A DNA stretch of 63,294 nucleotides, the filler included. It is 3 parts of 3 records of this genome, joined end to end, with 100 filler letters (N's around TTAATTAATTAA, not from the genome) between each part and the next. Parts side by side here need not be neighbours in the genome. Positions count along the whole stretch, not along the records: positions 13,334 to 42,028 come from SRR2962707_1126; 2 more parts are not named here. One strand, 5' to 3'. Below are positions 15,178 to 31,740 of this stretch, one piece after another. How positions within the stretch are numbered: the stretch's first letter is position 1; each line of letters opens with the position of its first letter. The position numbers and the translations under genes were made by a program. The notes under the pieces were generated by a model, which made no database searches, was not told the origin of the DNA, and saw only the letters and a program-made list of their open reading frames with translations.

Positions 15178-15354
15178 AGATAATTTTATGAAAAATGATA
15201 TACAAATATAGCATGAAAAGCAATTACTTTACATGAAAAGTAGTTATTTTTTAATAAACAACATGAAATTTGATTATTCCTGACGAGATTATAAACTTTA
15301 GTTAATTTAACCAAATAGGATTGTGCATTCATACGAAATCTTATTAGTATATAG

Positions 15355-15438
15355 CTATCCAATATTCTCGAAAATTAAACTCGCAAAATATTTCTCGAAA
15401 AAGGGACGGCATAAAGCCGTTCCGCTGTCTCTTTTTAT
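15355..15438 (+). repeat. 84-bp direct repeat, copy 1
   Basis: Matches 31092-31175 at 79/84 positions by manual alignment; contains hairpin GGGACGGC-ATAAA-GCCGTTCC. Confidence 0.9.
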
Positions 15439-15476
15439 ATACGTTTGCCATCACGTTCCTCAGCTACTACATCGAA

Positions 15477-15695
15477 TTAGCCCATAGCAGAAGGCCAAAT
15501 ATTGTTTTTGATACAGTCTTTGATTTTAAGCATATCACCGTCAATATCATCTACGCCAAGTACTTTCCCATACTTATCAATGCCAATATAGATTAGACCA
15601 CCTTCAAAATAATTGAGAAAAGCAATTACTTCCTTTTCCATATCCAGATCTTTGGTGAGTTTCTCTTTGTATTCTATACGATTTGTTTCGGGCAT
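15477..15695 (-). pseudogene. AlbA_2/Schlafen-like DNA-binding domain fragment
   Basis: MPETNRIEYKE...KEVIAFLN..GGLIYIGIDK.GKVLGV; only 72 aa and ends beside repeat copy 1. Confidence 0.75.
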
Positions 15696-16023
15696 TATCA
15701 GTAATTTAGCGTAAAAATAATCTTTTCAGGTAAAAATAGAAGCCTTTTCTAAAAAAGCTGCCATATAATTATGGGGTTTAATCACGGTTTTCTTTTTGTA
15801 TACTCCTAGTGCAGTCTTTATAGGTGAATACTTTTTGGAAGTCTATTTATAATATCTGTTATATATGTAGTGATTTTCAATAAATCTATTTTTTAAATAT
15901 TTATAAAAGATTTTTTAGGAGCATTTTTAAATGGCAGGTGTGCCTGCTGCACAAGTTAGAAAAAATTTGACGTAGGATTGCTATTAATTTTTTATTGGAT
16001 TCATAACTTGAAGTATTCTACAG

Positions 16024-16058
16024 CTTTAAATTAACTTTAGAATTCCCAAATACATTTG
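16024..16058 (+). promoter_or_regulatory. Operator/promoter motif 1 (CTTTA 11-bp tandem + -7 box)
   Basis: CTTTAaattaa CTTTAG N10 TACATTTG upstream of PAP2. Confidence 0.75.
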
Positions 16059-16122
16059 ACATAAAATAAGAAAATCACAATAAACTATGTAATGTGATTT
16101 CAATGATATTATACTTATAAAA

Positions 16123-16902
16123 ATGTATATGACTCTTAGAAAGAAAGAATTAACTTTTGTAATGCTCCTCTTTTTGTTTGCTGGTTTTAGTCAAAAGAAA
16201 ATAGACAAAGATTCCTTATCAGTTAAGGATACATCGAATATCAATTTTCAATATAAATCACTTATTATCCCTTCTGCCCTTATTGGTTATGGTCTTTTGG
16301 CCACTGAAAGTCATACTTTGATTGATTTCAATGGAGAAATTAAAGAAGAAGTAAATGAACATATTGATAAGAAGTTTACTATTGACGATATCTCTCAGTA
16401 TGCTCCAGCTGTGGCAGTGTATGGTATAAATTTAGCTGGAGTTAAGGGGAGAAATAATTTAAGGGATAGAACTATTATCTTGGGGACTGCCTATTTGATT
16501 ATGGGATCGAGTGTTACTGGGTTAAAAGCTATTACTAGAATAGAGAGACCCGATGGGACTTCTCGAAATTCATTCCCTTCAGGCCATACTGCCACAGCGT
16601 TTATGGGTGCTGAATTTTTATATCAAGAGTATAAAGACGTTTCTATTTGGTATGGAATTGCGGGCTATGCTGTGGCAACAGGAACAGGTTTTTTTAGGAT
16701 CTATAACGACAGACATTGGTTTAGTGATGTTATAGCTGGGGCTGGGATAGGGATTCTTAGTACTAAAATCGCTTATTGGATTCATCCCTTTATTAATAAA
16801 AAAATATTTCTCAATCATACTAAAGAAAAAAGATTTGATAAAGCATTTGCTCCATTTTACAATGGTAGGGAGATGGGTGTGGGAGCTGTGATTCGATTTT
16901 AA
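16123..16902 (+). CDS. PAP2 family phosphatase
   Basis: K....RP, SFPSGHT, RIYNDRHWFSDV. Confidence 0.9.
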   Translation: MYMTLRKKELTFVMLLFLFAGFSQKKIDKDSLSVKDTSNINFQYKSLIIPSALIGYGLLATESHTLIDFNGEIKEEVNEHIDKKFTIDDISQYAPAVAVYGINLAGVKGRNNLRDRTIILGTAYLIMGSSVTGLKAITRIERPDGTSRNSFPSGHTATAFMGAEFLYQEYKDVSIWYGIAGYAVATGTGFFRIYNDRHWFSDVIAGAGIGILSTKIAYWIHPFINKKIFLNHTKEKRFDKAFAPFYNGREMGVGAVIRF

Positions 16903-16957
16903 CTAATAAACCCGTTATACTATTTCGTTATTTCTTGAGCTTCTTGAATAGTACGCT

Positions 16958-16992
16958 CTTTAAAATAACTTTAGAATTGAGAGATATATTTG
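16958..16992 (+). promoter_or_regulatory. Operator/promoter motif 2
   Basis: CTTTAaaataa CTTTAG N10 TATATTTG upstream of TolC operon. Confidence 0.75.
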
Positions 16993-17013
16993 TTTATCCT
17001 ATAAAGTAAATTT

Positions 17014-18294
17014 GTGCGAACTATTCTTTTTTATAGCTTTTTGTTTTTGTGTACTAGTTCTATAATAGGACAAGAACAAAAGAACCTGGAATATTTTATT
17101 AATCAAGCAAAGGAACATTTGCCAAGTGTAAAGGAAATTGAAAACCTCAAACGGATAGGGGAGTTACAATATGAGGTTATCAAGGCTCAAAACAATGCAT
17201 TTCAGGTCAACGCTACAACAGATGTATTAGTAGCTCCTTATTTTAATAATGATGGAAAGTTTATTGACATTACTACAAATCCTTCTAATAATGCCTATGG
17301 TTATGATGTGGGCATTACAAATGGAGGACTTTATTCTGCACAAGTTAATATTACCAAATCCTTATTTAATAAAAAATTGTTGGATGGACTCTTATTACAA
17401 AGTAAACTAACCAATGAAGGAGTATTACTTTCATCGGAGGCCATAGTGCATACTTTAATTAAAAACATTACTGACACCTATATACTGGCTTATCAACAAC
17501 AATTAAAAATCGAATTTGCCGATGAGATTTTAGCGGTACTTAGACAAAGACTTGATGTGGTTGCGGTATTGGTTAAAAACGGAATTCTTTCCAGTAGTGA
17601 CTATTTATTGTTAAAACTTGATTTAGATACAAAAAATATTGAACTTCAGCAATATAGTACAGCTTTCAATACTACTATAATTCAACTGTATTCCCTATGT
17701 GGAATTACAGCTGAAAAAACAGAAAGTTTGCTCCCTCCAATATTGGATTACAAAGAGAATCCAAAAACTTTCTTTTACCTGAAAAAATATCGAAATGACA
17801 GTTTACAACTCAAGTCTGATGAGCAGGTTTTATTGAATCGGTATAAACCAAATTTGTCATTTTATGGAAATACAGGTGTTAATGCGGTGGAACTTTCACA
17901 TATTAATCATAAAATTGGAGCCAGTGTGGGTTTACATCTTGACATTCCTATCTATGATGGGAACAGGCGAAAGTATATGCTGGATCAATATAAATTGAAA
18001 AAGGAAAATTTAGAAAGGTATAAGAAAAATGATGCCGTTAAGCTGAATAATGATCTAAAGGCATTGCATAATCAGGTAGACGCCTTACAGAATCAAATGA
18101 TTCTGCTTAATAAACAATTGGATCAGTATGCCCATATCCAAGAAATCTATAAAGAAAAGTTCGTGCAGGGACAGGTTTCTATTGTTGATTATTTAAATGT
18201 GATTCAGAATTATAAATCGAACATGTATACCAAATTACAAGCACAAACAAATTTATGGCTTTTAAAAAGTCAGTTTAACTATACAAATTGGTAA
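17014..18294 (+). CDS. TolC family outer membrane efflux protein
   Basis: Signal peptide, helical repeats, LDIPIYDG; first gene of TolC-MFP-RND operon. Confidence 0.8.
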   Translation: MRTILFYSFLFLCTSSIIGQEQKNLEYFINQAKEHLPSVKEIENLKRIGELQYEVIKAQNNAFQVNATTDVLVAPYFNNDGKFIDITTNPSNNAYGYDVGITNGGLYSAQVNITKSLFNKKLLDGLLLQSKLTNEGVLLSSEAIVHTLIKNITDTYILAYQQQLKIEFADEILAVLRQRLDVVAVLVKNGILSSSDYLLLKLDLDTKNIELQQYSTAFNTTIIQLYSLCGITAEKTESLLPPILDYKENPKTFFYLKKYRNDSLQLKSDEQVLLNRYKPNLSFYGNTGVNAVELSHINHKIGASVGLHLDIPIYDGNRRKYMLDQYKLKKENLERYKKNDAVKLNNDLKALHNQVDALQNQMILLNKQLDQYAHIQEIYKEKFVQGQVSIVDYLNVIQNYKSNMYTKLQAQTNLWLLKSQFNYTNW

Positions 18295-18296
18295 TT

Positions 18297-19220
18297 ATGA
18301 AGATAGATATCTCAAAATTCTATTTGGTATTCATTTTTTTGATAATAGCGATTGGATGCAATACACCTCCTGTACCTCAAAATAAAGCTAAGACCTTTGT
18401 TAGGGTTCAAACAACAACAGTTAAAAAAGGTACTATTGATCAATATCGTTTATTTAATGGAGTTACCAAATATCAGCGAAAGGAAGCTATCCGAGCCAAC
18501 GTAACTGGATATATTTCTACAATCAATTTTGAGGTTGGTAATTCTATTAATAAAGGGCAAGTTTTATGCTACATAAGAACAAAAGAACAACAAGCTCTTG
18601 GAGCTGCTGTAAAAATAGATAGTTCTCTGGCAAAACTTACCATTCCTATGGATATAAAAAGTAAGGCGACTGGGGTAGTTTCCATTATAAATTATAATGA
18701 GAATAGTTATGTTTCAGAAGGGGCTATTATAGCCACTGTTACACAACCAAATTCGTTGACTATACAAGTAAGTATTCCTTTCGATCAAAGTAAAGAAATA
18801 AACAAGGGAATGCCTTGTGAGGTTATTTTAAAAGACACCACCATCAATGCTAAAATTAGTCAACAATTGCCCATAATTGAACCTTTGACCCAAAATCAAC
18901 AATTTTTAATTGAAATGCCAAAGATTGTTTTACCAGAAAGCTTAAAAGTACAGATTCGAATGTTGGGAAAAATAGCTATGAATGCGATGGTACTTCCCAA
19001 ATCTGCCATACAGACTAATGAACTGCAAAATAAGTTTTGGGTTATGAAAGTTTTAAATGATTCTTTAGCTGTAAAAATTAATGTAATTCCATTATTGGAA
19101 AATGATTCTTTGGTTCAAATAAAATCAACTATGTTAGATTATAAAGATACTATTATTATTAAGGGAGCATATCAATTACAAGATACTACTGTAGTCCGTA
19201 TTGAAAATCCAGCGCCATGA
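18297..19220 (+). CDS. RND efflux periplasmic adaptor (MFP) lipoprotein
   Basis: Lipobox IAIGC, lipoyl-like halves, LPKSAI; between TolC and RND. Confidence 0.85.
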   Translation: MKIDISKFYLVFIFLIIAIGCNTPPVPQNKAKTFVRVQTTTVKKGTIDQYRLFNGVTKYQRKEAIRANVTGYISTINFEVGNSINKGQVLCYIRTKEQQALGAAVKIDSSLAKLTIPMDIKSKATGVVSIINYNENSYVSEGAIIATVTQPNSLTIQVSIPFDQSKEINKGMPCEVILKDTTINAKISQQLPIIEPLTQNQQFLIEMPKIVLPESLKVQIRMLGKIAMNAMVLPKSAIQTNELQNKFWVMKVLNDSLAVKINVIPLLENDSLVQIKSTMLDYKDTIIIKGAYQLQDTTVVRIENPAP

Positions 19221-22200
19221 ATGTTAACTTCGTAAAATACAAATATCCTTTTTTGATTTTGGCAATACTCATCTTAGCTGGTGGGCTTTTTTCTTACCAA
19301 AAATTAAAAACAGGATTGTTTCCGGATATCACTTTTCCAAAGATCAAAGTAATTGCTGATGCAGGACAACAACCAGTGGATAAAATGATGACAGCGGTTA
19401 CCATTCCTCTAGAAAATGCATTGAGACGAACAGAAGGATTACAATATATTAAAAGTACTACCTCTCGTGGAAGTTGTGAGATTTCCGTATTTCTAGATTG
19501 GGATATGGATATTAATATAGCTAAATCTCAAATAGAATCCTATATTAATCAATCACAGGGAAGTATTCTCCCAAACACCAATTTTTTAGTAGAGAAAATG
19601 AACCCTTCCATATTGCCAGTTATAGGCTATTCTTTGGAAGGAGATAATTACTCTTTGGTAGATTTAAAGAAAATAGCTAAATATCAAATAAAGCCCTATT
19701 TGGCTGCAAGTCCAGGAGTTGCAGATGTGGTGGTGGTTGGGGGGAAGGAAAAAGAGTATCAGGTGGTATTGGATCCTGTAAAGTTCAATAAGTTTGGAAT
19801 TGGTATTTCTACAGTTAAGAATGCTATTGTCAATGCCAATATTCTTCAATCCAATGGGTATATTGCAGATCATAATCGTTTGTATCTAACACTTACTGAT
19901 AATGCCATAACTCAAAGAACCGATTTGGAAAATATCCCAATTATTAATACTTCCAGTGGATTTATTCGCTTAAAGGATATTGCTTCTATTGATATTAAAG
20001 AGGTAAAAGAATATGTTAGAATTTTGGCCAATGGGAAAAATACACCTCTTATTGCCATAGTGAAACAATCAACAGCCAATTTAATGGAGGTTACCACTGA
20101 AACAGAGAAAAAAATTGATGAATTGGCAAGCATTTTGCCCAAAGGAATTTATCTAAAACCTTGCTATAAGCAAGCCGATTTTGTAGGTGAAAGCATTCGT
20201 AGTATAAAAGATGTCCTATGGATTGGACTTTTATTAGCATTGTTTGTTGTTGTTTATTTTTTAAAATCAATTTCAGCAAGTTTATTGGTGCTGTTTTCCA
20301 TTCCTATTTCTTTATCGCTTACCTTGATTGGTTTAGATATTATGGGTTACTCGTTTAATATTATGACCCTTGGAGCTATTGCAGCTGCAATAGGCCTGAT
20401 GATAGATGACGTGGTAATTGTGATAGAACAAATCCATAAAATTAGAGAGGAAAATCTTGAAGAATCTATTGGAGGGATTGTTCACAGAAGTATTCAATAT
20501 TTATTTCCAGCAATGATAGGGTCATCTCTTAGCACATTAGTTATATTCATCCCTTTTATACTTATGACAGGAGTAGCAGGGGCTTATTTCAAAGTAATGG
20601 CCTTTACAATGGTTATTGCGCTCATTGCTTCCTTTGTCGTTTCGTGGTTGGTGTTACCCGTTTTAGCGATTTTTTTATCCAAGGGATCTCATAAAAAGAA
20701 TATAAAGAGACAAAGTACCAAATGGATACACTTTATTTTAAGGCGTCCAATTATTGGAGTTTTATTTGCTTTTTTATGTGTTTTAATTCTACTGGCTGTT
20801 CCTTCTAGATTAACCACGGGTTTTTTACCCGAAATGGACGAGGGGAGTATTGTGTTGGATTTTAATAGTCCACCTGGTACAACCTTGGAGGAAACCAACC
20901 GAATGCTTTCAGAGGTTAATCATATATTGAACAATCAAGAAGAGGTGGAGGCGTACTCTGCTCGTATGGGAACTCAAATGGGCTTTTTTATTACGGAACC
21001 AAACCGTGGGGATTACCTCATAAAATTAAAAGATTCTAAAAATAAAACTACAACAGCCGTAGCCGATGAAATAAGACAAAAATTAGAGATGTCAATTCCG
21101 CAACTTACGGTAGATTTTGGCCAGGTTATTGGTGATATGTTGGGAGATTTAATGAGTTCTGTACAACCAATAGAAATAAAAGTATTTGGATCGGATGTGA
21201 AAACACTTCAAATACTTTCAAAACAAATTGCTGCTGAGATAAAACAGGTGGATGGAACTGTTGATGTAAATGATGGAGTAATTGTTGCCGGACCTACGCT
21301 CTCAATAATACCAAATACCTATACACTTTCTCAATTGGGACTTACAGCAAATGATTTACAATTACAATTACAAACCCAAATAGAAGGGATGGTAGTGAGT
21401 ACTATATATGAAAACGAACAAATAGTGCCTATTCGTTTGATATATTCCAATATTAAAAATTTAGACATTGATAATATCAGGAATACTAAAATAATATTAC
21501 CAAATGGATCATCAATTGCTATTGATAAAGTAGCTTCCATAACTTTAGGAAAAGGAGTGGCTGAAATTAATAGAGAAAACCAAAAATCCATGGGGGTAAT
21601 TACTGCACGATTGGATCAGCGTGATCTAGGATCTGCCGTAGTGGAAATCAAGAATCTAATAACCGAAAAAATCAGTATTCCAAGTGGATATCACATAGCT
21701 TATGGGGGAGCTTATAAAGAACAACAACAGGCATTTCAGGAATTGTTATTAATTCTAATTAGTGCTTTTTTATTAGTCTTTATGATTATTCTCTGTTTGT
21801 TTCGAAAGCTTATTATTGCTATTATGATACTCATTATAGGAGTGCTCGGGGTTGCAGGTTGTTTGTTAAGTCTTTTTATTACAGGAACCCCATTGAATGT
21901 TGGAAGTTATACAGGGATTATCATGATTGTTGGGATTTTAGGGGAGAACAGCATCTTTACCTATTTACAGTTTTTAGAGACAGATACAAAGTGGTCTGTT
22001 TTAAAAAGGATCGAATATGCCATAGCTGAAAGGTTGCGACCAAAGCTAATGACAACTACCGCCGCAATGATGGCTTTGATTCCTTTGGCACTTGGTATCG
22101 GAACGGGTGCACAATTACATCAACCATTAGCTATTGCGGTTATTGGAGGGCTACTATTTGCTTTGCCACTTTTATTAGTGGTATTGCCTACAATGCTTGA

Positions 22201-22225
22201 ATACATTGAAAAAAAGAGAAAGTGA
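19217..22225 (+). CDS. RND efflux permease (AcrB/CzcA family)
   Basis: 1002 aa; FPDITFP, GLMIDDVVIVIE, FLPEMDEG, RLRPKLMT, QPLAIAVIGGL. Confidence 0.92.
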   Translation: MNVNFVKYKYPFLILAILILAGGLFSYQKLKTGLFPDITFPKIKVIADAGQQPVDKMMTAVTIPLENALRRTEGLQYIKSTTSRGSCEISVFLDWDMDINIAKSQIESYINQSQGSILPNTNFLVEKMNPSILPVIGYSLEGDNYSLVDLKKIAKYQIKPYLAASPGVADVVVVGGKEKEYQVVLDPVKFNKFGIGISTVKNAIVNANILQSNGYIADHNRLYLTLTDNAITQRTDLENIPIINTSSGFIRLKDIASIDIKEVKEYVRILANGKNTPLIAIVKQSTANLMEVTTETEKKIDELASILPKGIYLKPCYKQADFVGESIRSIKDVLWIGLLLALFVVVYFLKSISASLLVLFSIPISLSLTLIGLDIMGYSFNIMTLGAIAAAIGLMIDDVVIVIEQIHKIREENLEESIGGIVHRSIQYLFPAMIGSSLSTLVIFIPFILMTGVAGAYFKVMAFTMVIALIASFVVSWLVLPVLAIFLSKGSHKKNIKRQSTKWIHFILRRPIIGVLFAFLCVLILLAVPSRLTTGFLPEMDEGSIVLDFNSPPGTTLEETNRMLSEVNHILNNQEEVEAYSARMGTQMGFFITEPNRGDYLIKLKDSKNKTTTAVADEIRQKLEMSIPQLTVDFGQVIGDMLGDLMSSVQPIEIKVFGSDVKTLQILSKQIAAEIKQVDGTVDVNDGVIVAGPTLSIIPNTYTLSQLGLTANDLQLQLQTQIEGMVVSTIYENEQIVPIRLIYSNIKNLDIDNIRNTKIILPNGSSIAIDKVASITLGKGVAEINRENQKSMGVITARLDQRDLGSAVVEIKNLITEKISIPSGYHIAYGGAYKEQQQAFQELLLILISAFLLVFMIILCLFRKLIIAIMILIIGVLGVAGCLLSLFITGTPLNVGSYTGIIMIVGILGENSIFTYLQFLETDTKWSVLKRIEYAIAERLRPKLMTTTAAMMALIPLALGIGTGAQLHQPLAIAVIGGLLFALPLLLVVLPTMLEYIEKKRK

Positions 22226-22271
22226 TAAAAGGAATATTGATTTTTAAATTGAAAGAACTAACTTTAATACT

Positions 22272-22949
22272 ATGAAAATATTAATTGCAGAGGATGAATT
22301 TTCTTTACAGCAGTCTATTGCCATTTATCTTGAAAAGCAAGGGAATGTGTGCGAAGTGGCTTCAGATTTTAATGAAGCGTCTTATAAGGTGTCACTATAT
22401 GATTATGATATTGTTATACTGGATCTCAATTTGTTGACTGGGAGTGGGATTGATATCTTGAAGCAGTTGAAGAAGGAACAGGATGCTAATACCGCTGTTA
22501 TTATTATATCTGCAAATAATTCTTTGGATGATAAATTAAAAGGTTTGGATCTCGGAGCAGATGATTATTTAACAAAACCATTTCATTTAGCGGAGCTTAA
22601 TTCCCGAGTAAAGGCCATCTTAAGAAGGCAAAAGTTTGGAGGAGGTACAATTGTTGTTTTTAACGAGATTAAAATAGATACTGATGGACATTTGGTTACA
22701 GTGGGAGAAAAAGTGATTGTACTCACTAAAAAAGAATATGATTTGTTACTTTTTTTTGTAACCAATAAAAATAGGGTACTATCCAAGGAAATTATAGCAG
22801 AACACCTCTGGGGAGACAACAGTGATTTAATTGACAATTTTGATTTTATTTATGTGCATGTCAATAATTTACGAAAAAAACTCACGAAAGAAGGAGCAAA
22901 ATATATTAAAACAGCCTATGGAAGTGGGTACAAATTCATAGATGATTAA
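22272..22949 (+). CDS. OmpR-family response regulator
   Basis: ED..LDL..GADDYLTKPF receiver; winged helix LTKKEYDLL...VHVNNLRKKL...YGSGY. Confidence 0.93.
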   Translation: MKILIAEDEFSLQQSIAIYLEKQGNVCEVASDFNEASYKVSLYDYDIVILDLNLLTGSGIDILKQLKKEQDANTAVIIISANNSLDDKLKGLDLGADDYLTKPFHLAELNSRVKAILRRQKFGGGTIVVFNEIKIDTDGHLVTVGEKVIVLTKKEYDLLLFFVTNKNRVLSKEIIAEHLWGDNSDLIDNFDFIYVHVNNLRKKLTKEGAKYIKTAYGSGYKFIDD

Positions 22950-24206
22950 ATGAATAAGAATAGGAAAAAGGTAGGTCTCATACAAAAGACTTCCAATATT
23001 TTTATAATGGTAAGCTTACTGTTAATGTCTTTAAGTTCAATTGCGCTTTATTTTTATTTACGAAATATTTTGGAAGTGGAAATTGAGGAGCAGTTGTATT
23101 CTACAGCTGCTAGGATTGAAAGTTCACTGGAAGCGGGTAAAAATCCATATTCATTGCCGCCAGTAGTAGAAGTAGCTACTTCCAATAAATCTCTTCCTGA
23201 TATTTTGAAAGATACCTTAATTTATGACCCTTCACAAGATGAGATAGAACTTTTTAGGGAACTTTCAAGTTTTAAAAAAATCAATAATATTAATTATAAA
23301 ATCACAGTGCGTGATCTTGTAGTGGAATCTGAAAATATATTGATGGCCATAATTATTTCCTATTTATTAATTATTATAACGGTATTTGTAGTGTTGTATT
23401 ACTTTAACAAAGTAGGAAATTCCTATTTGTGGAAACCATTTTTTAATACGTTGGAACAAATAAAAGAATTTTCTCTATCCACTAAAGAACCAGTAGCACT
23501 GTCAATCTCTAATATTAGAGAGTTTAGTGAACTGAATACCCAAGTAAAAATACTTACTGATAAAGTAAGGGGAGATTATAACAATCTAAAGCAATTTACA
23601 GAGGATGTTTCCCATGAATTACAAACTCCCTTGGCCATCATGCAGGTTAAAATAGAGAGTGTTATAAATGATGCACCATTAAGCAACCAACAATATGATC
23701 AGTTGACATCCATTCAAAAAGATATTAAGCGAGTAACTCAAATGAATAAGGGATTGACACTGCTTACAAAAATAGAGAACAATCAATTTATAAACCCAAA
23801 ACAAGTTTCATTGACTTCTATCGTAGAGGGGAATATTGCTAATTTTAAAGAGATATTCCAACAAGATATTCAGTTCGTAAATGAAAATGAGCTTTTGGTG
23901 ACTATGGATTACCATTTGGCAGAAATTCTATGTAATAATTTAATTTCCAATGCTATTAAGCATCACATAGGTAGTGGGGATATAGTTATTGAAATTACTA
24001 AAGAGCATTTATCTGTATGTAATAAGGGGGAGAAACCAATTTTACATGCAGATCGGATATTCAATCGTTTTTATAAAGAAAATGAGAGTGTGAAATCCAC
24101 TGGTTTAGGGCTTGCCATTGCAAAGAAGATTTGCGATATGTATAATTTTAAGCTTACCTATACATTCGAAAAAGGATTCCATATATTTTTAGTTCAATTT
24201 TCATAA
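22950..24206 (+). CDS. Sensor histidine kinase
   Basis: Two TM segments; SHELQTPL H-box, NLISNAIKH, GLGLAIA. Confidence 0.93.
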   Translation: MNKNRKKVGLIQKTSNIFIMVSLLLMSLSSIALYFYLRNILEVEIEEQLYSTAARIESSLEAGKNPYSLPPVVEVATSNKSLPDILKDTLIYDPSQDEIELFRELSSFKKINNINYKITVRDLVVESENILMAIIISYLLIIITVFVVLYYFNKVGNSYLWKPFFNTLEQIKEFSLSTKEPVALSISNIREFSELNTQVKILTDKVRGDYNNLKQFTEDVSHELQTPLAIMQVKIESVINDAPLSNQQYDQLTSIQKDIKRVTQMNKGLTLLTKIENNQFINPKQVSLTSIVEGNIANFKEIFQQDIQFVNENELLVTMDYHLAEILCNNLISNAIKHHIGSGDIVIEITKEHLSVCNKGEKPILHADRIFNRFYKENESVKSTGLGLAIAKKICDMYNFKLTYTFEKGFHIFLVQFS

Positions 24207-24247
24207 ATAACTAAGTGTTAACCACTAAGTAATAATTTAATTTTCCA

Positions 24248-24282
24248 CTTTAAACCATCTTTAAATTTGCTTTTTAAGTTTA
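24248..24282 (+). promoter_or_regulatory. Operator/promoter motif 3
   Basis: CTTTAaaccat CTTTAA N10 TAAGTTTA upstream of TonB receptor. Confidence 0.7.
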
Positions 24283-24299
24283 TCCAAAATTCAGACATA

Positions 24300-26723
24300 A
24301 TGGATAAAATAAAGATACGATTGTTGTCTTCCTTTTTGGCAATATTTGGTGTTTGCGAAGCGCAGGAAAAAATAACAATTTCTGGAAAAGTAAAAGATAA
24401 TCAAACCAATGAAGTATTACCTTTTACTTCTGTAACAGTAAATAAAGAAACTTCTGAGACGTTTGTAGTAGGAACAATTACAGATGAAGCGGGTAATTTT
24501 CAGATAGAAGGATTGGCATTGGGAAATTATAGTATAAACATCTCTTTTGTAGGCTATGAGCAATCGCAACGGATGATTTATGCAAGCGGAATAAATACCA
24601 CTTTTAATCTAGGAGTAATTCCGTTGAATCCCACATCCGAAACTTTGGAAGCGGTGGAGGTTTCAGTAAAAAGAGAAGTGACCAATGCTGCATTAAGTAA
24701 AAAAAGTTTTTCACTTACCGATAATATTGCTAATTCTGGTGGCTCGGTATTGGAAGCTATGAAATCAATGCCCGGGGTTACTTTTGATCAAGATGGAAAA
24801 GTGTTGTTGAGAGGGAGTGATAAGGTTACTGTGCTTATAGATGGAAAACAGTCCAGTTTAACTGGGTTTGGAAACCAAAAAGGATTGGGAAATATTCCAG
24901 TTTCAAATATTGATAGGATAGAGATCATTAATAATCCTTCGGCTAAGTATGATGCCAATGGCTTGGCGGGAATTATTAATATCATCTATAAAGATGAGCA
25001 AGAAAGAGGATTAAATGGAACTGTAGGACTTTCATCTGGGATAGGGGCTTTCAGTAAGCGAAAGGAGGATCTCCCGATCGATCTGGGTTCTTATTATATG
25101 AATCCGAAATTAATTCCAAGCATAGATTTTAACTATAGAACTAAAAAGTTCAATTACTTTTTTCAGTCAGAATTTATCATTCAAGAAGCGCTTCCCAATA
25201 ATGAGTATACCACTAGATTCTATAATGATGGAAGGAAGATTACATCCCAAGTTCCTGAGAACAGAAAACAGTTCAGGGTTATCTTAAAAGGAGGTATTGA
25301 TTGGAATTTTAATGAGAATAATAGGTTTACTTTTTCAGGGATGTACGATAGAGAAAAACATATAGATACCTCTCAAGTAGCTTTTATCAACCTAGCCTCC
25401 AGTCAAAGAGAACGCTATTATAACTGGAAAGAAGAAGAGATAACAAGTAACATTAATGTGGTAGCAGATTATGAACATTCATTTTCGCAGCCTGGGCAAA
25501 CCTTTAATGCAAACCTACAATATACAAGAGGTTTGGAGGATGAAAGTTATTTTTTGAATGATAGTTCTTCCATTCGGTTGGGGAGGGATGTTACGCATAT
25601 AAAAGCGGTAGAACATACCCTGGGAGTGTCAGCTAATTACGCACAGGCACTAGCAGCTGGGAAGTTGGAGGTGGGCACCAAAGTTAGAGTTCGCCGTCTT
25701 CCTGTGGATTATATTGTTGAAAGAGGAAATAATTCAATTATTTATGAAGGGCTCGGGGATTATTCCGATTGGGGAGAGAATCTCTTTGCAGGGTATGCAA
25801 ACTTTGTATATGAAAGAGCACATTTTGAAATAGAAGCAGGTTTAAGAGCTGAGTATACCGAGGTTTTTTATACTCTCGACCCTACAAATATCTACTACAA
25901 TTCCAACGACGATTACGACTATTTTAAATTTTTTCCAAGTGTACGATATACTCAAAAGCTGAACCAAAATAACAATATATCCCTTTTTTATAATCGTCGA
26001 ATTGATCGTCCTGGAGAAGCAGAACTCAGGATTTTTCCAAAGTATGATGACCCTGAACTCTTAAAAGTAGGGAATCCCTATTTACGTCCTCAATACACAG
26101 AATCTATAGAATTGGCACATAAATTTTCATGGACCACAGGTTCTTTATTTTCCGCTTTATATCACAAAAAGATAACCGATGAATATCGAAGAATTTATAG
26201 TATTGATGATTCGAATCCAACGTATGATATTATCAATAGAATATATCAAAATACAGGAAAGACGTTGTCAAGCGGAATAGAAATACTTTTTAATCAGGAT
26301 ATTTCCTCTTATTGGGAATTGGGTATGAGTGCAAATTTTTTTAGAAATAAGGTAGCAGCTTATACTGGAACTGTCTTGTTTCCCTATGAAAGATCCTTTT
26401 ATATAGAAGAATCTAAGGCAAATGCTACTATTTTAAAACTAACCAATGAATTTCAGCTGCCTTGGGAGTTACAATTTCAAGTGGTAGGGCTTTATTATTC
26501 ACCAAAAAATATACCGCAAGGAAAGGAGCTTTCTCGTTCTTCGGTAGATATTGGAGTGAAGAAAGTCGTATGGAATAAAAAAGGAGAGGTTGCTTTTTCA
26601 ATGAGTGATATTTTTAATACTTATGGCATTCGACAAGAAATAAACGAAAGCGATTTTACTGCCTTATATCAGAATTATTATGAGACACAGATTGCGAGAA
26701 TATCTTTTAAATATAAGTTCTAA
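24300..26723 (+). CDS. TonB-dependent receptor / outer-membrane beta-barrel
   Basis: CarboxypepD_reg N-domain, plug (IDRIEIINNPSAKYDA), GNPYLRP, C-terminal YKF. Confidence 0.88.
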   Translation: MDKIKIRLLSSFLAIFGVCEAQEKITISGKVKDNQTNEVLPFTSVTVNKETSETFVVGTITDEAGNFQIEGLALGNYSINISFVGYEQSQRMIYASGINTTFNLGVIPLNPTSETLEAVEVSVKREVTNAALSKKSFSLTDNIANSGGSVLEAMKSMPGVTFDQDGKVLLRGSDKVTVLIDGKQSSLTGFGNQKGLGNIPVSNIDRIEIINNPSAKYDANGLAGIINIIYKDEQERGLNGTVGLSSGIGAFSKRKEDLPIDLGSYYMNPKLIPSIDFNYRTKKFNYFFQSEFIIQEALPNNEYTTRFYNDGRKITSQVPENRKQFRVILKGGIDWNFNENNRFTFSGMYDREKHIDTSQVAFINLASSQRERYYNWKEEEITSNINVVADYEHSFSQPGQTFNANLQYTRGLEDESYFLNDSSSIRLGRDVTHIKAVEHTLGVSANYAQALAAGKLEVGTKVRVRRLPVDYIVERGNNSIIYEGLGDYSDWGENLFAGYANFVYERAHFEIEAGLRAEYTEVFYTLDPTNIYYNSNDDYDYFKFFPSVRYTQKLNQNNNISLFYNRRIDRPGEAELRIFPKYDDPELLKVGNPYLRPQYTESIELAHKFSWTTGSLFSALYHKKITDEYRRIYSIDDSNPTYDIINRIYQNTGKTLSSGIEILFNQDISSYWELGMSANFFRNKVAAYTGTVLFPYERSFYIEESKANATILKLTNEFQLPWELQFQVVGLYYSPKNIPQGKELSRSSVDIGVKKVVWNKKGEVAFSMSDIFNTYGIRQEINESDFTALYQNYYETQIARISFKYKF

Positions 26724-26726
26724 CCA

Positions 26727-26761
26727 CTTAAACATTCCTTTAGAATTAGTTCCTAATTTTA
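26727..26761 (+). promoter_or_regulatory. Operator/promoter motif 4
   Basis: CTTAAacattc CTTTAG N10 TAATTTTA upstream of PepSY-like gene. Confidence 0.7.
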
Positions 26762-26789
26762 ATATTATTAACTAAAAATAAAACTTATA

Positions 26790-27242
26790 ATGAAAGTATT
26801 AAAGTTATTATTTATGGTGGTCTCAGTAACAGGGTTAAGTGCCTTTGCCATTAAAAAAGAGGTGCCAGAAAAAGTAGAAGAAGCATTTAATAAAAAATTC
26901 CCTGAAGCTAAGGCCGTACATTGGGATCAGGAATCTGATCATGAATGGGAAGCAGCATTTAAATATGGTGGACATCGGTATTCAGCCAATTTCATGGATG
27001 ATGGTACGTGGAAAGAAACAGAACATGACATTAAGTTGAAGCAATTACCAGACAGGGTTCGAATTTCCTTATTTCAAAAGTTCCAAAATTATAAAATTAA
27101 AGAGCAAGAAATTTCGGAAACAACTAATGGTATTCTATACGAATGTGAAATTAAAAAAGGAAAATCCAAATTGGAAGTAGCTTTTGATGAAAAAGGAGAA
27201 TTAAAGAAAAAAGAAGTGTTAACAGGAGAAGATGAAGATTAG
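26790..27242 (+). CDS. PepSY-like (BLIP/DUF2874-type) periplasmic protein
   Basis: VPEKV..AF.KKFP.A..V.W..E...WEA.F...F..DG.W.ETE repeat pattern. Confidence 0.8.
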   Translation: MKVLKLLFMVVSVTGLSAFAIKKEVPEKVEEAFNKKFPEAKAVHWDQESDHEWEAAFKYGGHRYSANFMDDGTWKETEHDIKLKQLPDRVRISLFQKFQNYKIKEQEISETTNGILYECEIKKGKSKLEVAFDEKGELKKKEVLTGEDED

Positions 27243-27262
27243 GTTTTGATTGTTTCGTATTG

Positions 27263-27298
27263 ATGGGATTTGAATTTATTTTCAAATCCCATTTTTTT
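27263..27298 (+). terminator. Rho-independent terminator
   Basis: ATGGGATTTGAA/TTCAAATCCCAT stem followed by a T-run. Confidence 0.85.
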
Positions 27299-27322
27299 GC
27301 AATAATCGGAATGAAATACAAA

Positions 27323-27357
27323 CTTTAATTTTCCTTTAGATTCTGGTACTAATTTTA
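27323..27357 (+). promoter_or_regulatory. Operator/promoter motif 5
   Basis: CTTTAattttc CTTTAG N10 TAATTTTA upstream of LTA-synthase-like gene. Confidence 0.72.
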
Positions 27358-27384
27358 CCGCTTAAATTTAGATGCAGTAATTTT

Positions 27385-29364
27385 ATGTGGTATTGTCCCC
27401 CTAAACGTTTTGAATTATTGAAGGTTTTTGTTCTTTTTTTTATAAGCCTTTCATTTGTTGTAAGATCAATTTTTTTATTGTGGAATTTAGGTGAGGTGGA
27501 TGTACATTTTATTGATATAATACGAATTTTTATAACAGGTTTGTTTTATGACTTGGGAACAATTTCGTTTTTTACCCTTCCGTATTTGCTGTATTTAATG
27601 ATTATTCCTAATAAATGGATTGGGAGTTTATTTGATCGAATAGCTACCTATACAGGTTTTACCATAGGAATATTGATGCTCTATTTTTCATTTTTTGCAG
27701 AAATTACATTCTGGGATGAATTCCATAGAAGATTTAATTTTATAGCAGTAGATTATCTAATCTATACCTATGAGGTAGTTCAAAATATAAATGAGTCCTA
27801 TCCCTTACCGATTTTAATTTCTAGCATCTTGTTATTGGCTATTGGTACCTTATATTTAATATATAAATGCAAGGTTTTTAAACATATATTTCTGACGCAA
27901 ATAACATTTAAAAAGAAAGTATTATTTTCTTTACCTTGGATTGTAATAGCCATTTGTTTTAGCATGTTTGTTTCCAATGAAGGTGCTGATTGGTCTAGAA
28001 ACCGGTACAATAATGAACTTTCTAAGGCGGGGATTTATTCCTTTTTTGCCGCCTTTAGAAATAATGCACTTTCTTACACGGAATTTTACAAAACCCTTAC
28101 AGAAAAAGAATCTCATGCTTTGGTTAGCAAACAATACGAAGCTTCTGGAAAATTGATTAATCCGAAAAAAAATCCAATATATAGAAATATTTCACGGCAT
28201 GATTCACTTCAAAGTGAAATAACCCCCAATGTTATATTTATTTGTGTGGAGAGTTTAAGTGCAAAATTCTTAGGAGTATTTGGCAATGAAAAGGGGCTTA
28301 CTCCGAACTTGGATAAGCTTTCTAAGGATGGGGTTTTGTTTTCAAATCTATATGCTACAGGAACCAGGACGGTTCGTGGAATGGAAGCCATAACCTTATC
28401 GATTCCACCAACACCTGGACGAAGTATTGTGAAAAGAGAACGGAATACGGGAATGTTTACTATTGGTGAAGTGTTTAAAAATAAAGGGTATACCCGTAAC
28501 TTCTATTATGGGGGAGATGGCTATTTCGATAATATGAATACGTATTTTAGTGGTAATGGTTTTAATATTATAGATAGAGGAAGAAATTTTTTGATTGGAG
28601 ATGAGATAGAAACCATTAGGACGAATATTAATGATGAAGAAGTAAGTTTTGAAAATGCTTGGGGTGTATGCGATGAGGATCTTTTTAGTAAAGTCTTACA
28701 ACAAGCAGATTTGCAGACTGTTAATGGAACACCTTTTTTTGACTTTATCATGACTACTTCTAATCATAAACCTTATACCTATCCTAATGGAAAAATAGAC
28801 ATCCCGTCGGGGAGTGGTCGCGATGGAGCCGTTAAATATACAGATTATGCGATTGGAAAGTTTATTGAAAAAGCTAAAACAAAGCCGTGGTTTAAAAATA
28901 CTGTATTTGTGATTATGAGTGATCATTGTGCCAGTAGTGCTGGAAGGTGGGAATTAGATGTTAAGAATTATCATATTCCTGCTATTATCTACAACCTGCC
29001 TAATAAACACTCAGAAAAGGTTGAGAAACTCTGTTCTCAAATCGATCTTTTCCCAACACTATTCGGTTATTTTAATTGGGAGTATAGTTCAAACTTCTTT
29101 GGGCAGGATATCACAAATAAAGCTTCAGATAGGGAAAGGGCTTTTATTGGAAATTATAGAAAACTTGGACTTTTAAAAGGAAATGATGTAATGATCCTTG
29201 GAGACCAAAAAACTGCTAATTTTTATACATGGGATGATAAAACCAATGAACTGACGAAACAAACATTATCCAATGACTATTTAAATCAGACCATATCTTT
29301 TTATCAAACTGCCGATGATTTATATACCAGCGGTAAGCTCACTTTAAAAAGTTTAAACAAATGA
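27385..29364 (+). CDS. LTA synthase / OpgB-like phosphoglycerol transferase (sulfatase superfamily)
   Basis: Five N-terminal TMs; NVIFICVESL, TGTRTVRG (catalytic Thr), TTSNH.PY, SDH, SQIDLFPTL. Confidence 0.88.
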   Translation: MWYCPPKRFELLKVFVLFFISLSFVVRSIFLLWNLGEVDVHFIDIIRIFITGLFYDLGTISFFTLPYLLYLMIIPNKWIGSLFDRIATYTGFTIGILMLYFSFFAEITFWDEFHRRFNFIAVDYLIYTYEVVQNINESYPLPILISSILLLAIGTLYLIYKCKVFKHIFLTQITFKKKVLFSLPWIVIAICFSMFVSNEGADWSRNRYNNELSKAGIYSFFAAFRNNALSYTEFYKTLTEKESHALVSKQYEASGKLINPKKNPIYRNISRHDSLQSEITPNVIFICVESLSAKFLGVFGNEKGLTPNLDKLSKDGVLFSNLYATGTRTVRGMEAITLSIPPTPGRSIVKRERNTGMFTIGEVFKNKGYTRNFYYGGDGYFDNMNTYFSGNGFNIIDRGRNFLIGDEIETIRTNINDEEVSFENAWGVCDEDLFSKVLQQADLQTVNGTPFFDFIMTTSNHKPYTYPNGKIDIPSGSGRDGAVKYTDYAIGKFIEKAKTKPWFKNTVFVIMSDHCASSAGRWELDVKNYHIPAIIYNLPNKHSEKVEKLCSQIDLFPTLFGYFNWEYSSNFFGQDITNKASDRERAFIGNYRKLGLLKGNDVMILGDQKTANFYTWDDKTNELTKQTLSNDYLNQTISFYQTADDLYTSGKLTLKSLNK

Positions 29365-30242
29365 AAAAAATTCATTTCATTGTAAATCCAATTGCAGGAA
29401 AAGGGAATAAACATATTGATGAAACGCTTTTGAGCAGCTATTTTTCAAAAGACCATTATGAGGTGAGAGTTAAGAGTACAAAGTATAAAGGTGAGGCTGT
29501 AGTGCTGACCCAAGAATCTGTTAGCCAAGGTGCCACTATTATTGTAGCATGTGGTGGTGATGGAACCGTTAATGAGGTAGCTTCTGTCTTAGTGAATTCT
29601 CAATGCATCTTAGGGATTGTACCCATTGGTTCTGGAAATGGATTGGCTTCTCATTTGAAAATACCTAAAGATATTGAAAAGGCACTTTTACTGATTCAGC
29701 ATGAGATAACAACCAGAATTGATGTAGGAAGCTGCAATGGCACTTATTTTTTTAGTAATACAGGCTTTGGATTTGATGCAAAAGTAATACGAAGGTATGA
29801 AGGTTTTACTGGGCGTACCCTTAATAGTTATTTAAAAGCTTGTGTTGTTACTTTTTTTAATAATAAGAATGAAGATTCTCTTGTAGTAACCATTAACGGA
29901 ACAAAAAAGTATAAAGACCCATTTTTAATTTTTGCATCAAACTCCAATGAATTGGGCTATAATTTTAGTCTTACGCCAAAAGCATCACTACAAGATGGTC
30001 TTTTGGATGTTCTTATAATCCCAAAGATGCAGAAGCTACAGTTAGTATGGTTTGGGGTAATGTTAATTTTTAAAAGACATCTAGGTTTAAATGGAGTGGT
30101 TAGTTATCAAACAAATAAGCTAGATATAATAAGAAATGAAGGAAGGTATTTTGAATCTCAAATGGATGGTGAATATAAAACTTTAGAAGAAATAGAGGTA
30201 TCTATTGAATTATTGAAAGACTCAATTATAGTAATCAATTAA
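29361..30242 (+). CDS. Diacylglycerol/lipid kinase (DgkB/YegS family)
   Basis: IVNPIAG, GGDGTVNEV, P.GSGNGLA, G.GFDA, DGLLD, DGE. Confidence 0.9.
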   Translation: MKKIHFIVNPIAGKGNKHIDETLLSSYFSKDHYEVRVKSTKYKGEAVVLTQESVSQGATIIVACGGDGTVNEVASVLVNSQCILGIVPIGSGNGLASHLKIPKDIEKALLLIQHEITTRIDVGSCNGTYFFSNTGFGFDAKVIRRYEGFTGRTLNSYLKACVVTFFNNKNEDSLVVTINGTKKYKDPFLIFASNSNELGYNFSLTPKASLQDGLLDVLIIPKMQKLQLVWFGVMLIFKRHLGLNGVVSYQTNKLDIIRNEGRYFESQMDGEYKTLEEIEVSIELLKDSIIVIN

Positions 30243-30254
30243 TATTCACTTAAA

Positions 30255-30289
30255 CTTTAGAATGTCTTTAGAATCAAGATTTACTTTTA
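30255..30289 (+). promoter_or_regulatory. Operator/promoter motif 6
   Basis: CTTTAgaatgt CTTTAG N10 TACTTTTA upstream of second PAP2. Confidence 0.72.
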
Positions 30290-30355
30290 GTAGCTTAATC
30301 CTAAGAAATACTCATGCCTATACTATTAAAACTACATAACTGATAGCGTAAATTT

Positions 30356-30940
30356 ATGTGTTCTCTTTTTAATTCCCCTACCAAAACCTTCCATTTTAAA
30401 ATTCAGAGGTGCTTTATATTTTTTGTTTGTCTTATTTGCTTTTGGAATTTGAGATTGTATTCACAAGAAAAAGCGATTGAAATCTCAGGAGATATTCTTT
30501 TGTATGCTATGCCTACTATTTCATTAGGATCTACCCTTGTCATTGGTGATAAACAAGGAACTTGGCAGTTTCTAAAAGGTTTTGCCGTAAACGAAGCCAT
30601 GACTTTTGGGTTAAAACTAGCCATTAGTAAGCCACGACCCAATGAAGCTAATAATAATTCTTTTCCATCAGGGCATACCTCCACGACATTTCAGAGTGCG
30701 GCTTTTATTCAAAAACGATATGGCTGGAAATATGGAATACCTGCTTATGCATTAGCTGGGTTCACTGGATTTAGTAGGATTTACGCCGATCAGCATGATA
30801 TACTGGATGTTTTAGCGGGAGCAGTCATAGGTGTTGGAAGTAGTTATTTATTTACGACTGAATATCAAAAGAAACATATGGAAGTTACATTTACTTCCAA
30901 TCGAGATAACATATTACTGGGATTTAATTATAAGTTTTAA
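30356..30940 (+). CDS. PAP2 family phosphatase (LpxE-like)
   Basis: K.AISKPRP, SFPSGHT, SRIYADQHDILDV; exact start uncertain. Confidence 0.85.
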   Translation: MCSLFNSPTKTFHFKIQRCFIFFVCLICFWNLRLYSQEKAIEISGDILLYAMPTISLGSTLVIGDKQGTWQFLKGFAVNEAMTFGLKLAISKPRPNEANNNSFPSGHTSTTFQSAAFIQKRYGWKYGIPAYALAGFTGFSRIYADQHDILDVLAGAVIGVGSSYLFTTEYQKKHMEVTFTSNRDNILLGFNYKF

Positions 30941-31091
30941 CACCAATTTAGCCATATAAATAAGGTAGAATATTTAAAACCAATACTATATATTTAACAT
31001 ATTAGTTTAATATAAATTCATCCAATCTTATGATGTGGGTCACTTATTCCTTTTTAGCATCAAATTATACATGACAACATATTAAATATAT

Positions 31092-31175
31092 CTATCCAAT
31101 ATTTCCGAAAGTTAAACTCGCAAAATATTTCTCGGAAAAGGGACGGCATAAAGCCGTTCCGTTGTCTCTTTTTAT
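31092..31175 (+). repeat. 84-bp direct repeat, copy 2 (continues into a long imperfect hairpin to 31204)
   Basis: 79/84 identity to 15355-15438. Confidence 0.9.
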
Positions 31176-31236
31176 TCCGTTTCCTTTCCACTCCAAAATT
31201 TTGCCTTCCGTTTGGGTTATGCTCAAATATTGTTTA

Positions 31237-31258
31237 ACCTGCCTGTCGGTAGACAGGT
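31237..31258. repeat. Short REP-like palindrome
   Basis: ACCTGCCTGTCGGTAGACAGGT, a variant of the CCTGCCTGCCGGCAGGCAGG palindrome common in Bacteroidota. Confidence 0.55.
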
Positions 31259-31275
31259 CTAAAAATTTCATTATT

Positions 31276-31683
31276 ATGGAAACAAAAACAAAAGCAAGCG
31301 GTGTAGCAAAAAAACAAAGTGCTACCGTTAAAAAGGACGTTCAAAAGAAATTGACCCAAGAGGCAGTTGAGAAAACTGTAAAAGCTGAAACGAAGGTTGT
31401 TTCTCAAAAGCCTGAAATTAGTCTGGATGATCGCATCCAGAAGTTTGAAAAGTTACGAGGTTTGGCAACGCAGCGGGAACGCTTGGCAGAGACCTTAACC
31501 GAACTCACCAAATTCAATTACAATCAGGATGGTTCGAGTAGTTTCTTTATTCGAGATTCCCGTCATCTGGAATTTAAAACCACCAATTCAAATCTTATCA
31601 AATTGGTGACCTCGCATTTACAATCCACTTTAGAACAGCGTAAAGCGGAAATTGAACAGCAGATTGTTCAATTTGAGTTGTAA
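31276..31683 (+). CDS. Hypothetical protein of Bacteroidota mobile elements
   Basis: METKTKASG...; Lys-rich N-terminus, coiled C-terminus with FKTTNSNLI; precedes DUF932-like gene. Confidence 0.7.
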   Translation: METKTKASGVAKKQSATVKKDVQKKLTQEAVEKTVKAETKVVSQKPEISLDDRIQKFEKLRGLATQRERLAETLTELTKFNYNQDGSSSFFIRDSRHLEFKTTNSNLIKLVTSHLQSTLEQRKAEIEQQIVQFEL

Positions 31684-31705
31684 AACTTAATTTTCTATTT
31701 ATTAA

Positions 31706-31740
31706 AAAGCCTACTCGCAAGAGTGGGCTTTTCTTTTTTT
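31706..31740 (+). terminator. Rho-independent terminator-like hairpin
   Basis: AAGCCTACTC-GCAA-GAGTGGGCTT followed by T-run. Confidence 0.75.

Follow-up and report, generated by a model that had tools for sequence, protein, structure and literature searches.

The window analysed here, by which we mean the whole stretch of 63,294 nucleotides (filler included), joins three parts of three records, and positions 13334..42028 come from one of these records (SRR2962707_1126); adjacent parts are joined by filler N and need not be neighbours in the genome. This record carries a cassette that encodes a response regulator of the OmpR/PhoB family with a sensor histidine kinase, an RND efflux system, a receptor-like outer-membrane protein, a PepSY-like protein, an LtaS/OpgB-like transferase, a lipid kinase and two PAP2-family phosphatases (Table 1). 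A 35-bp promoter module, composed of two direct repeats and a −7 box, recurs in front of its transcription units. An earlier note, made from the sequence alone, had proposed that this module is the operator of the cassette's own regulator and that the cassette forms a portable, self-contained regulon. Here we follow up this proposal in the window, in related loci and in whole genomes of Flavobacteriaceae.

Promoter modules and genes of the cassette

Both strands of the window were searched with the 35-bp pattern CTTWA-N6-CTTTAR-N10-TANNTTTR, with 100 dinucleotide-preserving shuffles as the control. The pattern has exactly six matches, all intergenic, all on the + strand and all within 14.3 kb, whereas the shuffles gave a mean of 0.00 and a largest count of 0. 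All six copies listed in the earlier note were recovered at their positions, and no further one was found. The parts of the pattern are similarly overrepresented: the direct repeat alone matches 7 times where 0.57 is expected (the six sites and one on the − strand within the regulator gene), and the proximal repeat with the −7 box has 6 against 0.17. Allowing up to two mismatches returned the same six sites and one on the − strand within the RND gene, which we regard as chance.

Each module consists of two 11-bp-phased hexamers, CTTWAR-N5-CTTTAG(AWT), followed by 10 nt and the −7 box TAnnTTTR, and ends 17–66 nt before the next start codon. The 11-bp period and the 10-nt spacer hold in all six copies, as had been claimed; outside the motif positions, spacer and flank bases vary, so that agreement among the six modules is limited to the motif itself. 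The box TAnnTTT(G/A) is likewise present in 6/6, although its final base is the consensus G in only 2/6 and A in 4/6. At the PepSY promoter of the window, a third repeat was not recognisable at the in-phase position. An Rfam scan of 13000-43000 returned zero families, and a sigma-70-type promoter scan showed no enrichment (64 found, 74 expected), as expected for the phylum.

Gene content was assigned by Pfam, and equivalog membership was judged by NCBIfam curated cut-offs. The Pfam assignments confirmed the gene list of the earlier note, in which each module precedes a transcription unit of the cassette. The longest open reading frame (ORF) of the receptor-like gene starts at TTG 24267 and overlaps module 3; because of this overlap we placed its most likely start at ATG 24300, 17 nt past the box. 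The 'DD' pair in transmembrane segment 4 (TM4) of the RND permease is AcrB-like, which favours a pump of the drug/amphiphile type. A metal-efflux reading of the same pump was also considered; the CusA/CzcA models and the multidrug models gave similar scores, each under cut-off.

Table 1 Features of the cassette and of the segment that carries it, in window positions.
Feature	Position	Strand	Basis or remark
Segment shared with G. orientalis scaffold 2 (island)	13334..42028	.	between two N-run pairs
Promoter module 1	16024..16058	+	exact match; before first PAP2 gene; box ends 64 nt before ATG
PAP2-family phosphatase, 259 aa	16123..16902	+	Pfam PAP2 1.6e-16; weak LpxE-like NCBIfam match far under cut-off
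Promoter module 2	16958..16992	+	exact match; before efflux and two-component operon
Outer-membrane efflux protein (TolC-like)	17014..18294	+	Pfam OEP 5.8e-23
RND membrane-fusion (adaptor) protein	18288..19220	+	Pfam HlyD_3/HlyD_D23; NCBIfam RND_mfp under cut-off
RND permease, 1002 aa	19217..22225	+	Pfam ACR_tran 1.9e-194; 'DD' pair in TM4 (IGLMIDDVVIVIEQI)
OmpR/PhoB-family response regulator	22272..22949	+	Pfam Response_reg and Trans_reg_C
Sensor histidine kinase	22950..24206	+	Pfam HisKA and HATPase_c; two transmembrane segments, ~90-aa acidic periplasmic domain
Promoter module 3	24248..24282	+	exact match; before receptor gene; proximal hexamer CTTTAA
TonB-dependent-receptor-like outer-membrane protein	24300..26723	+	Pfam OMP_b-brl_3 1.7e-75, Plug, CarboxypepD_reg
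Promoter module 4	26727..26761	+	exact match; before PepSY-like gene
Secreted PepSY-like protein, 150 aa	26790..27242	+	signal peptide; Pfam PepSY_like 1.3e-11
Terminator-like hairpin	27262..27293	+	13 pairs and T run; closes PepSY unit
Promoter module 5	27323..27357	+	exact match; before transferase-kinase pair
LtaS/OpgB-like alkaline-phosphatase-superfamily transferase, 659 aa	27385..29364	+	membrane-anchored; Pfam Sulfatase 2e-46
Soluble DgkB/YegS-type lipid kinase	29361..30242	+	Pfam DAGK_cat 2.1e-29; NCBIfam TIGR00147 125.5 bits, cut-off 118.65 (passed)
Promoter module 6	30255..30289	+	exact match; before second PAP2 gene
Second PAP2-family phosphatase, 194 aa	30356..30940	+	Pfam PAP2 6e-13; LpxE model 46.5 bits, under its cut-off of 177
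Terminator-like hairpin	31140..31160	+	after last cassette gene

The closest relatives of the PepSY-like protein in the PDB are 3u1w and 4fr9, neither of which is characterised. A paper on the Bacteroidetes iron stimulon mentions PepSY-like genes and, in its accessible part, not this system (PMC10434189). For the transferase, the best NCBIfam model was phosphoglycerol transferase I (69.2 bits, cut-off 572), with LtaS at 36.4 bits (cut-off 970); its nearest PDB match is the uncharacterised VP1736 (3lxq, 3.3e-69), and LtaS 2w8d followed at 3.3e-9. The protein therefore appears assignable to superfamily level only. Its stop codon overlaps the start of the lipid kinase gene by 4 nt (29361-29364). 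As a separate observation, four sequencing runs that may be RNA, seen as contigs only, contain pieces of the genes for the PepSY-like protein, the regulator and the transferase/kinase pair; one such contig starts ~5-7 nt past the PepSY box and two others 45-90 nt further, and we did not count them as evidence of transcription.

Conservation, linkage to the regulator pair and transfer

A kinase-alignment search of genome contigs found 179 relatives, and we examined 80 loci (1.54 Mb) from ~31 named genera of marine Flavobacteriaceae and from metagenome-assembled genomes. Scanning the upstream regions of homologous cassettes in this family, a check that the earlier note had suggested, recovered the box in nearly every locus: 79/80 contain at least one site at up to one mismatch and 68/80 at least one strict site. 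The strict pattern has 134 sites, compared with 0 for the reversed pattern, and at up to one mismatch there are 256 sites, compared with 3 in reversed DNA. For most strict sites (119/134), a homologue of a cassette gene lies downstream on the same strand within 400 bp; these sites are distributed over PepSY (36), response regulator (22), outer-membrane efflux protein (19), transferase (17), PAP2 (13), receptor (11) and lipid kinase (1) genes.

Among the 15 remaining strict sites, 14 precede some other ORF. These include genes for DUF347 membrane proteins (four; loci L057, L076, L103 and L123), divergent outer-membrane efflux proteins (two), HD-domain proteins (two; L080 and L108), a PEMT-like methyltransferase (L071), an LptF/G permease (L116) and an amino-acid permease, as judged from 13 scanned proteins with one near-duplicate omitted. 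The regulon thus appears to gain members through acquisition of the promoter module.

The sites mark the heads of transcription units. At up to one mismatch they stand before 50/55 PepSY, 25/26 transferase, 21/30 outer-membrane efflux, 44/80 response regulator and 26/57 PAP2b-like genes, and before 0/79 histidine kinase, 0/30 membrane-fusion, 0/37 RND and 1/24 lipid kinase genes, which are internal to operons. The controls gave 29/632 for other genes of the loci and 0/297 for the reversed foreground. The receptor count of 5/38 is too low, since the longest ORF runs into the box and the upstream region scanned reached only 10 nt into that ORF. A count of 7-mers that is independent of the pattern agrees with this placement: CTTTAGA occurs in 183/297 upstream regions of unit heads and in 40/632 other upstream regions of the same loci. 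The sequences support the earlier suggestion of one promoter per unit, the regulator's own operon included.

A logo of 131 non-redundant sites from the relatives revealed conservation at positions that the pattern leaves free, namely G17 (127/131), A18 (124/131), T20 (118/131) and A/G followed by A at positions 6-7, from which we read the proximal half-site as CTTTAGAWT and the distal one as CTTWARA. Every one of the 131 aligned sites, like the six of the window, has the box TAnnTTT(A/G), and in the aligned sites its final base is A in 84 and G in 41. Upstream of the box, the logo shows no TTTG −33 element; the hexamers fill that space. When 24 transferase upstream regions (from genes whose proteins are less than 75% identical to that of the window) were aligned with MAFFT, the motif block alone was conserved. 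In five other genera, orthologues of 45–75% protein identity occur in shuffled gene order, with the box still before each unit head, and the orthologous site of module 1 is retained in G. pacificus (L046).

The rigid geometry claimed for the window extends to the relatives. Among the 201 repeat dimers of the loci, 130 are followed by TAnnTTT after 10 nt, 3 after 8 nt and 1 after 16 nt, so that the 10-nt spacer holds in 130/134 dimers that have the box; a period of 11 separates the repeats in 124/127 cases. A pattern with an 11-nt spacer found no cassette site in five whole genomes (6 matches, 12 for the control). A third in-phase repeat occurs at 29 PepSY promoters and four others, in the form CTTTAGATTTC-CTTAAAnnnnT-CTTTAGAAT, and 29/55 PepSY upstream regions match TAGA-N15-CTTT (loci L052-L122). 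The PepSY-like protein, the commonest target, may be the main output of the system or may partner the kinase in feedback.

To relate the motif to the regulator pair, we used a sample of 151 Flavobacteriaceae genomes from 150 genera, in which matches were counted by hand. The kinase profile scored at least 460 bits in 15/151 genomes, with the next best at 341. The strict pattern has 56 matches in 35/151 genomes, and the reversed control 36 in all 151. The 15 genomes with the orthologue hold 30 of the 56 matches; 12 of these genomes contain one or more, and 27/30 matches are found within ~12 kb of the pair on the kinase contig. The other 136 genomes contain 26 matches (0.19 per genome), a rate not above that of the control. 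When the pattern was relaxed to the proximal half-site and box, five orthologue genomes gave 32 matches against 16 controls, with 16/32 in the two-component loci, so that no regulon is detectable past this neighbourhood. The cassette is to this extent self-contained, with no excess of that pattern away from two-component genes in five whole genomes.

In the 4.5 Mb of Galbibacter orientalis DSM 19592, the strict pattern has seven matches and its reversal has none. Four are island sites, two stand before a chromosomal paralogue (one before its regulator-kinase genes and one before its PepSY-like gene) and the seventh, inside an ORF, is probably chance. The regulator of this paralogue is ~70% identical to the cassette regulator and has the same box before its own regulator-kinase and PepSY genes (L009 8752-11348, scaffold 1). 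At the DNA level, the island and resident systems could therefore be cross-regulating.

The cassette itself is shared with this strain. Window 17868-31018 is 99.95% identical to the G. orientalis genome (G001), and nucleotide matches to its scaffold 2 (G001:C2; 94–99.95%) are confined to 13334-42028, a segment bounded exactly by N runs at 13234-13333 and 42029-42128 (each 44 N, 12 bases and 44 N), which mask the ends of the island. Compared with the 151 genomes, the right flank (43500-62500) matches 138, at only 64–71% identity and with Galbibacter included. Because the matches stop at the segment edges and the flank remains at this level of identity, we conclude that the cassette lies on a horizontally shared island. 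This bears out the portability suggested earlier, the flanks matching no sampled genus above ~71%. In the G. orientalis copy, an IS21-type element (rve transposase and IstB) abuts a 151-aa remnant of an efflux gene (L008 4360-7177, scaffold 2), and for this reason the copy is without the first PAP2 gene and the promoter of the efflux and regulator-kinase operon. Five sequencing runs, with five organism labels from two studies, contain 98–100% of the sampled words of 22000-31000.

Several further features were seen on and off the island. A Fic-domain protein (13630-15177, − strand) matches the PADLOC candidate defence family PDC-S24 over its full length with 612.8 bits, and a 72-aa Schlafen/AlbA_2 fragment (15477-15695) adjoins its gene. 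The region 31086-32492 (orf173 and a DUF932 gene) has several copies in G. orientalis at 70–99% identity, which fits a repeated mobile-element gene. A gene row on the − strand (36254-41856) encodes a PRPP-synthetase-like, a thymidine-phosphorylase-like, a beta-CASP metallo-hydrolase and an ATP-cone/Mrr_cat protein; PADLOC gave only a weak CARF_PDDEXK match for it, without a clear assignment. Off the island, 49194-52881 holds a LytTR-type two-component pair, an extracytoplasmic function (ECF) sigma factor and a TonB_C/CarboxypepD_reg protein, which are unrelated to the motif.

A candidate operator for the cassette's regulator

The regulator is the sole DNA-binding protein of the cassette according to Pfam. 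Both of its domains score above cut-offs (Response_reg, 1.1e-24, residues 3-113; Trans_reg_C, 1.6e-19, residues 147-222). It carries D51 (in ILDLNL), S80 (IISAN) and K102 (LTKPF), each at least 95% conserved in 79 orthologues, which we take from the family pattern to be the phospho-acceptor and two further receiver residues. Conservation across the same orthologues is highest in its recognition helix (188-205), at 92% compared with 73–75% for its two domains. The nearest solved relatives are DrrD (1kgs) and PmrA/BasR (4s04, 8jo2), the latter at 132 bits and among the three nearest.

The kinase passes the NCBIfam model of the PorY family (NF052314; 407.7 bits, cut-off 350) over its full length. 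PorY is an orphan kinase that acts with PorX in the control of type IX secretion. The cassette kinase is not an orphan, as its gene starts at 22950 directly after the regulator stop at 22949 and the pairing is kept in the orthologous loci examined, and no type IX secretion genes were found among the targets in the window cassette and the 80 loci. Automatic annotation would probably mislabel it as PorY. Its periplasmic domain of ~90 residues is acidic and conserved in the alignment. A model of this domain (pLDDT 88.7) had no match in the PDB at E ≤ 0.001 with Foldseek, and because the best hit was only PAS/LOV-like at E 0.03, the fold yields no clue to a ligand.

We consider it quite probable that the 35-bp element is the operator of the cassette's OmpR/PhoB-type regulator, which would act as a class-II activator with feedback on its own operon. 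The conserved recognition helix and the co-occurrence of the motif with the regulator pair support this part of the earlier proposal, for which the comparative evidence as a whole is strong. A dimer of the phosphorylated regulator would bind the two (in some relatives three) head-to-tail hexamers. With the box at about −12 to −5, the hexamers would lie at about −39/−34 and −28/−23, where a −33 element would sit; because they occupy this position, we read the regulator as a class-II activator placed like PhoB at the Pho box. Once bound, it would recruit RNA polymerase with the primary sigma factor. The membrane kinase would sense a periplasmic signal, and the regulator would then switch on six units together: two PAP2 genes, the efflux and regulator-kinase operon (positive feedback), the receptor-like gene, the PepSY-like gene and the transferase with the lipid kinase. 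What the data show is the specificity, conservation and placement of the motif and its co-occurrence with the regulator pair; binding, activation rather than repression, and the transcription starts we infer.

Repression is an improbable alternative, in which the boxes would bind the same regulator as a repressor that occludes RNA polymerase at −39 to −23 until a signal relieves it. OmpR-family proteins can repress from core-promoter positions, and the site does overlap the core promoter. However, the invariant 10-nt spacing and the 11-bp phasing suggest contact between protein and polymerase, as at Pho boxes, and occlusion needs neither; a logo without a TTTG −33 element also makes the promoters look activator-dependent, and autoregulated operons of the OmpR family are usually activated. 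Slightly less probable still is that an alternative (ECF-type) sigma factor, or another host factor, uses the element as its promoter, with the two-component system as cargo under that control. A conserved upstream block at a fixed distance from a downstream block also typifies alternative-sigma promoters, and an ECF-type sigma gene is present elsewhere in the window (52357-52881). Yet this gene lies outside the transferred island, and no sigma gene recurs among the five cassette loci looked at. Moreover, the downstream block equals the primary-sigma −7 consensus, upstream of it stands a repeat in tandem, threefold at many PepSY promoters, rather than a single −35-like box, and the motif excess tracks the kinase orthologue across genomes. 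Recent duplication of one segment within the island, or chance in AT-rich DNA, has next to no probability even though all six promoters lie close together on one strand, as spacers and flanks differ, the same positions are kept before orthologues of 45–75% protein identity in other genera, and shuffles and reversed controls gave 0–3 matches.

Returning to the regulator as an activator at its own operator, several observations weigh against this reading. In the loci, 67/201 dimers lack an exact TAnnTTT at spacing 4-19; these may have degenerate boxes or another role. The co-occurrence would look the same for the cassette regulator and for another factor inherited along with it, and in G. orientalis two paralogous regulators share one box, which makes the acting protein at each promoter ambiguous. 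The regulator and kinase fall short of PmrA (NF007928, 157.7 bits against 330) and PmrB (NF008025, 58.6 against 314) orthology, and the regulator also of PhoB (TIGR02154, 161.5 against 296.2; Bacteroidota PhoB NF053854, 156 against 270). In the HMMER alignment with PmrA, Arg210 is replaced by Tyr. The fold of the sensor domain has no informative match, and the PAP2 and transferase assignments are far under every equivalog cut-off.

The biochemical roles we read from the gene set. By analogy with enterobacterial PmrAB, the output would most likely be remodelling of outer-membrane lipids or lipopolysaccharide together with expulsion of amphiphiles; the lipid part is by analogy only, because the PAP2 and transferase proteins fall so far under the equivalog cut-offs. 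The coupling of transferase and lipid kinase suggests diacylglycerol as a by-product. Our guess for the signal is envelope stress, cations or cationic/amphipathic compounds.

More tentatively, it is possible that the whole circuit of sensor, regulator and effectors moves between genera, with exchangeable modules that recruit genes, as a Bacteroidota counterpart of PmrAB providing inducible resistance to cationic/amphipathic compounds through remodelling and efflux. If so, the class-II geometry of PhoB and PmrA would also be functional with Bacteroidota's divergent primary sigma factor, and a paralogous regulator already resident could recognise the promoters of an arriving island with the same box, as the G. 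orientalis pair suggests. Regulation in marine Flavobacteriaceae is poorly mapped, and the motif offers a testable regulon of one regulator and six promoters, a system for studying OmpR/PhoB activators at the unusual −7/−33 promoters of Bacteroidota, and an example of a whole regulon transferred horizontally with its cis-elements. The gene set suggests inducible envelope remodelling, which bears on the tolerance of these bacteria, in seawater, of antimicrobial peptides and compounds of that kind.

Comparison with known systems

The earlier note did not recognise the operator as one already described. In the literature library searched, which includes few subscription journals, neither this regulon nor this operator was described; the operator does, however, have precedents in the PmrA box and the Pho box. 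On the sequence evidence, the element is a newly found and widely conserved operator within the well-known OmpR/PhoB operator class.

Pho boxes of E. coli lie 10 bp upstream of the −10 element, as given in the accessible part of PMC1906773. Like them, the cassette modules have tandem direct repeats of 11-bp period that lie 10 bp upstream of a −10-like element and stand in for the upstream promoter element. In cyanobacteria, SphR acts through three copies of CTTAACCT, and many PepSY promoters here also have three repeats. Unlike in the PhoB regulon, no pst/pho phosphate-acquisition genes are found among the targets. For Bacteroidetes, the available text of PMC7366714 gives a −7 consensus of TAnnTTTG and a −33 motif that was not recovered in F. 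johnsoniae. The downstream block of the module corresponds to this −7 consensus of primary-sigma promoters but ends more commonly in A than in G, and it differs further in that no TTTG −33 element is visible and the regulator hexamers take its space.

In Firmicutes, LtaS is coupled to DgkB, and pap2/dgkA genes occur beside mobile phosphoethanolamine transferases. The cassette is similar in that translational coupling joins a lipid kinase to its transferase, from which diacylglycerol would be released, and in that PAP2 genes flank them, and it differs in that no equivalog cut-off of LtaS, OpgB or LpxE is reached.

A close parallel is with PmrAB. The regulon of this system includes a head-group transferase of the alkaline-phosphatase superfamily and lipid phosphatases, and its regulator lies in an operon with a target. 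The cassette likewise has such a transferase, phosphatases and a regulator of the OmpR/PhoB family in an operon with a target. It differs from PmrAB in that its transferase is LtaS/OpgB-like and not EptA-like, in the absence of arn genes, and in its extra targets, which are the RND efflux, TonB-dependent-receptor-like and PepSY-like genes. According to the accessible part of PMC4660055, Asn188 and Asn196 of PmrA make base-specific contacts, Thr187, Val192 and His195 hydrophobic ones, and Arg210 reaches into the minor groove. The flavobacterial regulator shares V192, H193 and N196 of the recognition helix, while an asparagine aligns with H195. The Salmonella PmrA box consists of CTTAAG and xTTAAT, 5 bp apart, and pbgP of K. 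pneumoniae carries CTTAAT-N5-CCTAAG (PMC3973317, in its available text). The module has the same architecture of two head-to-tail hexamers with a 5-bp gap (CTTWAR-N5-CTTTAG), and its hexamers share 4–5 of 6 bases with CTTAAG, which is a resemblance and not an identity. Its proximal hexamer is CTTTAG instead of CTTAAG, and the promoter uses the Bacteroidota −7 box. Judged from the sequences of these loci, a PmrA-like arrangement appears to be widespread in marine flavobacteria.

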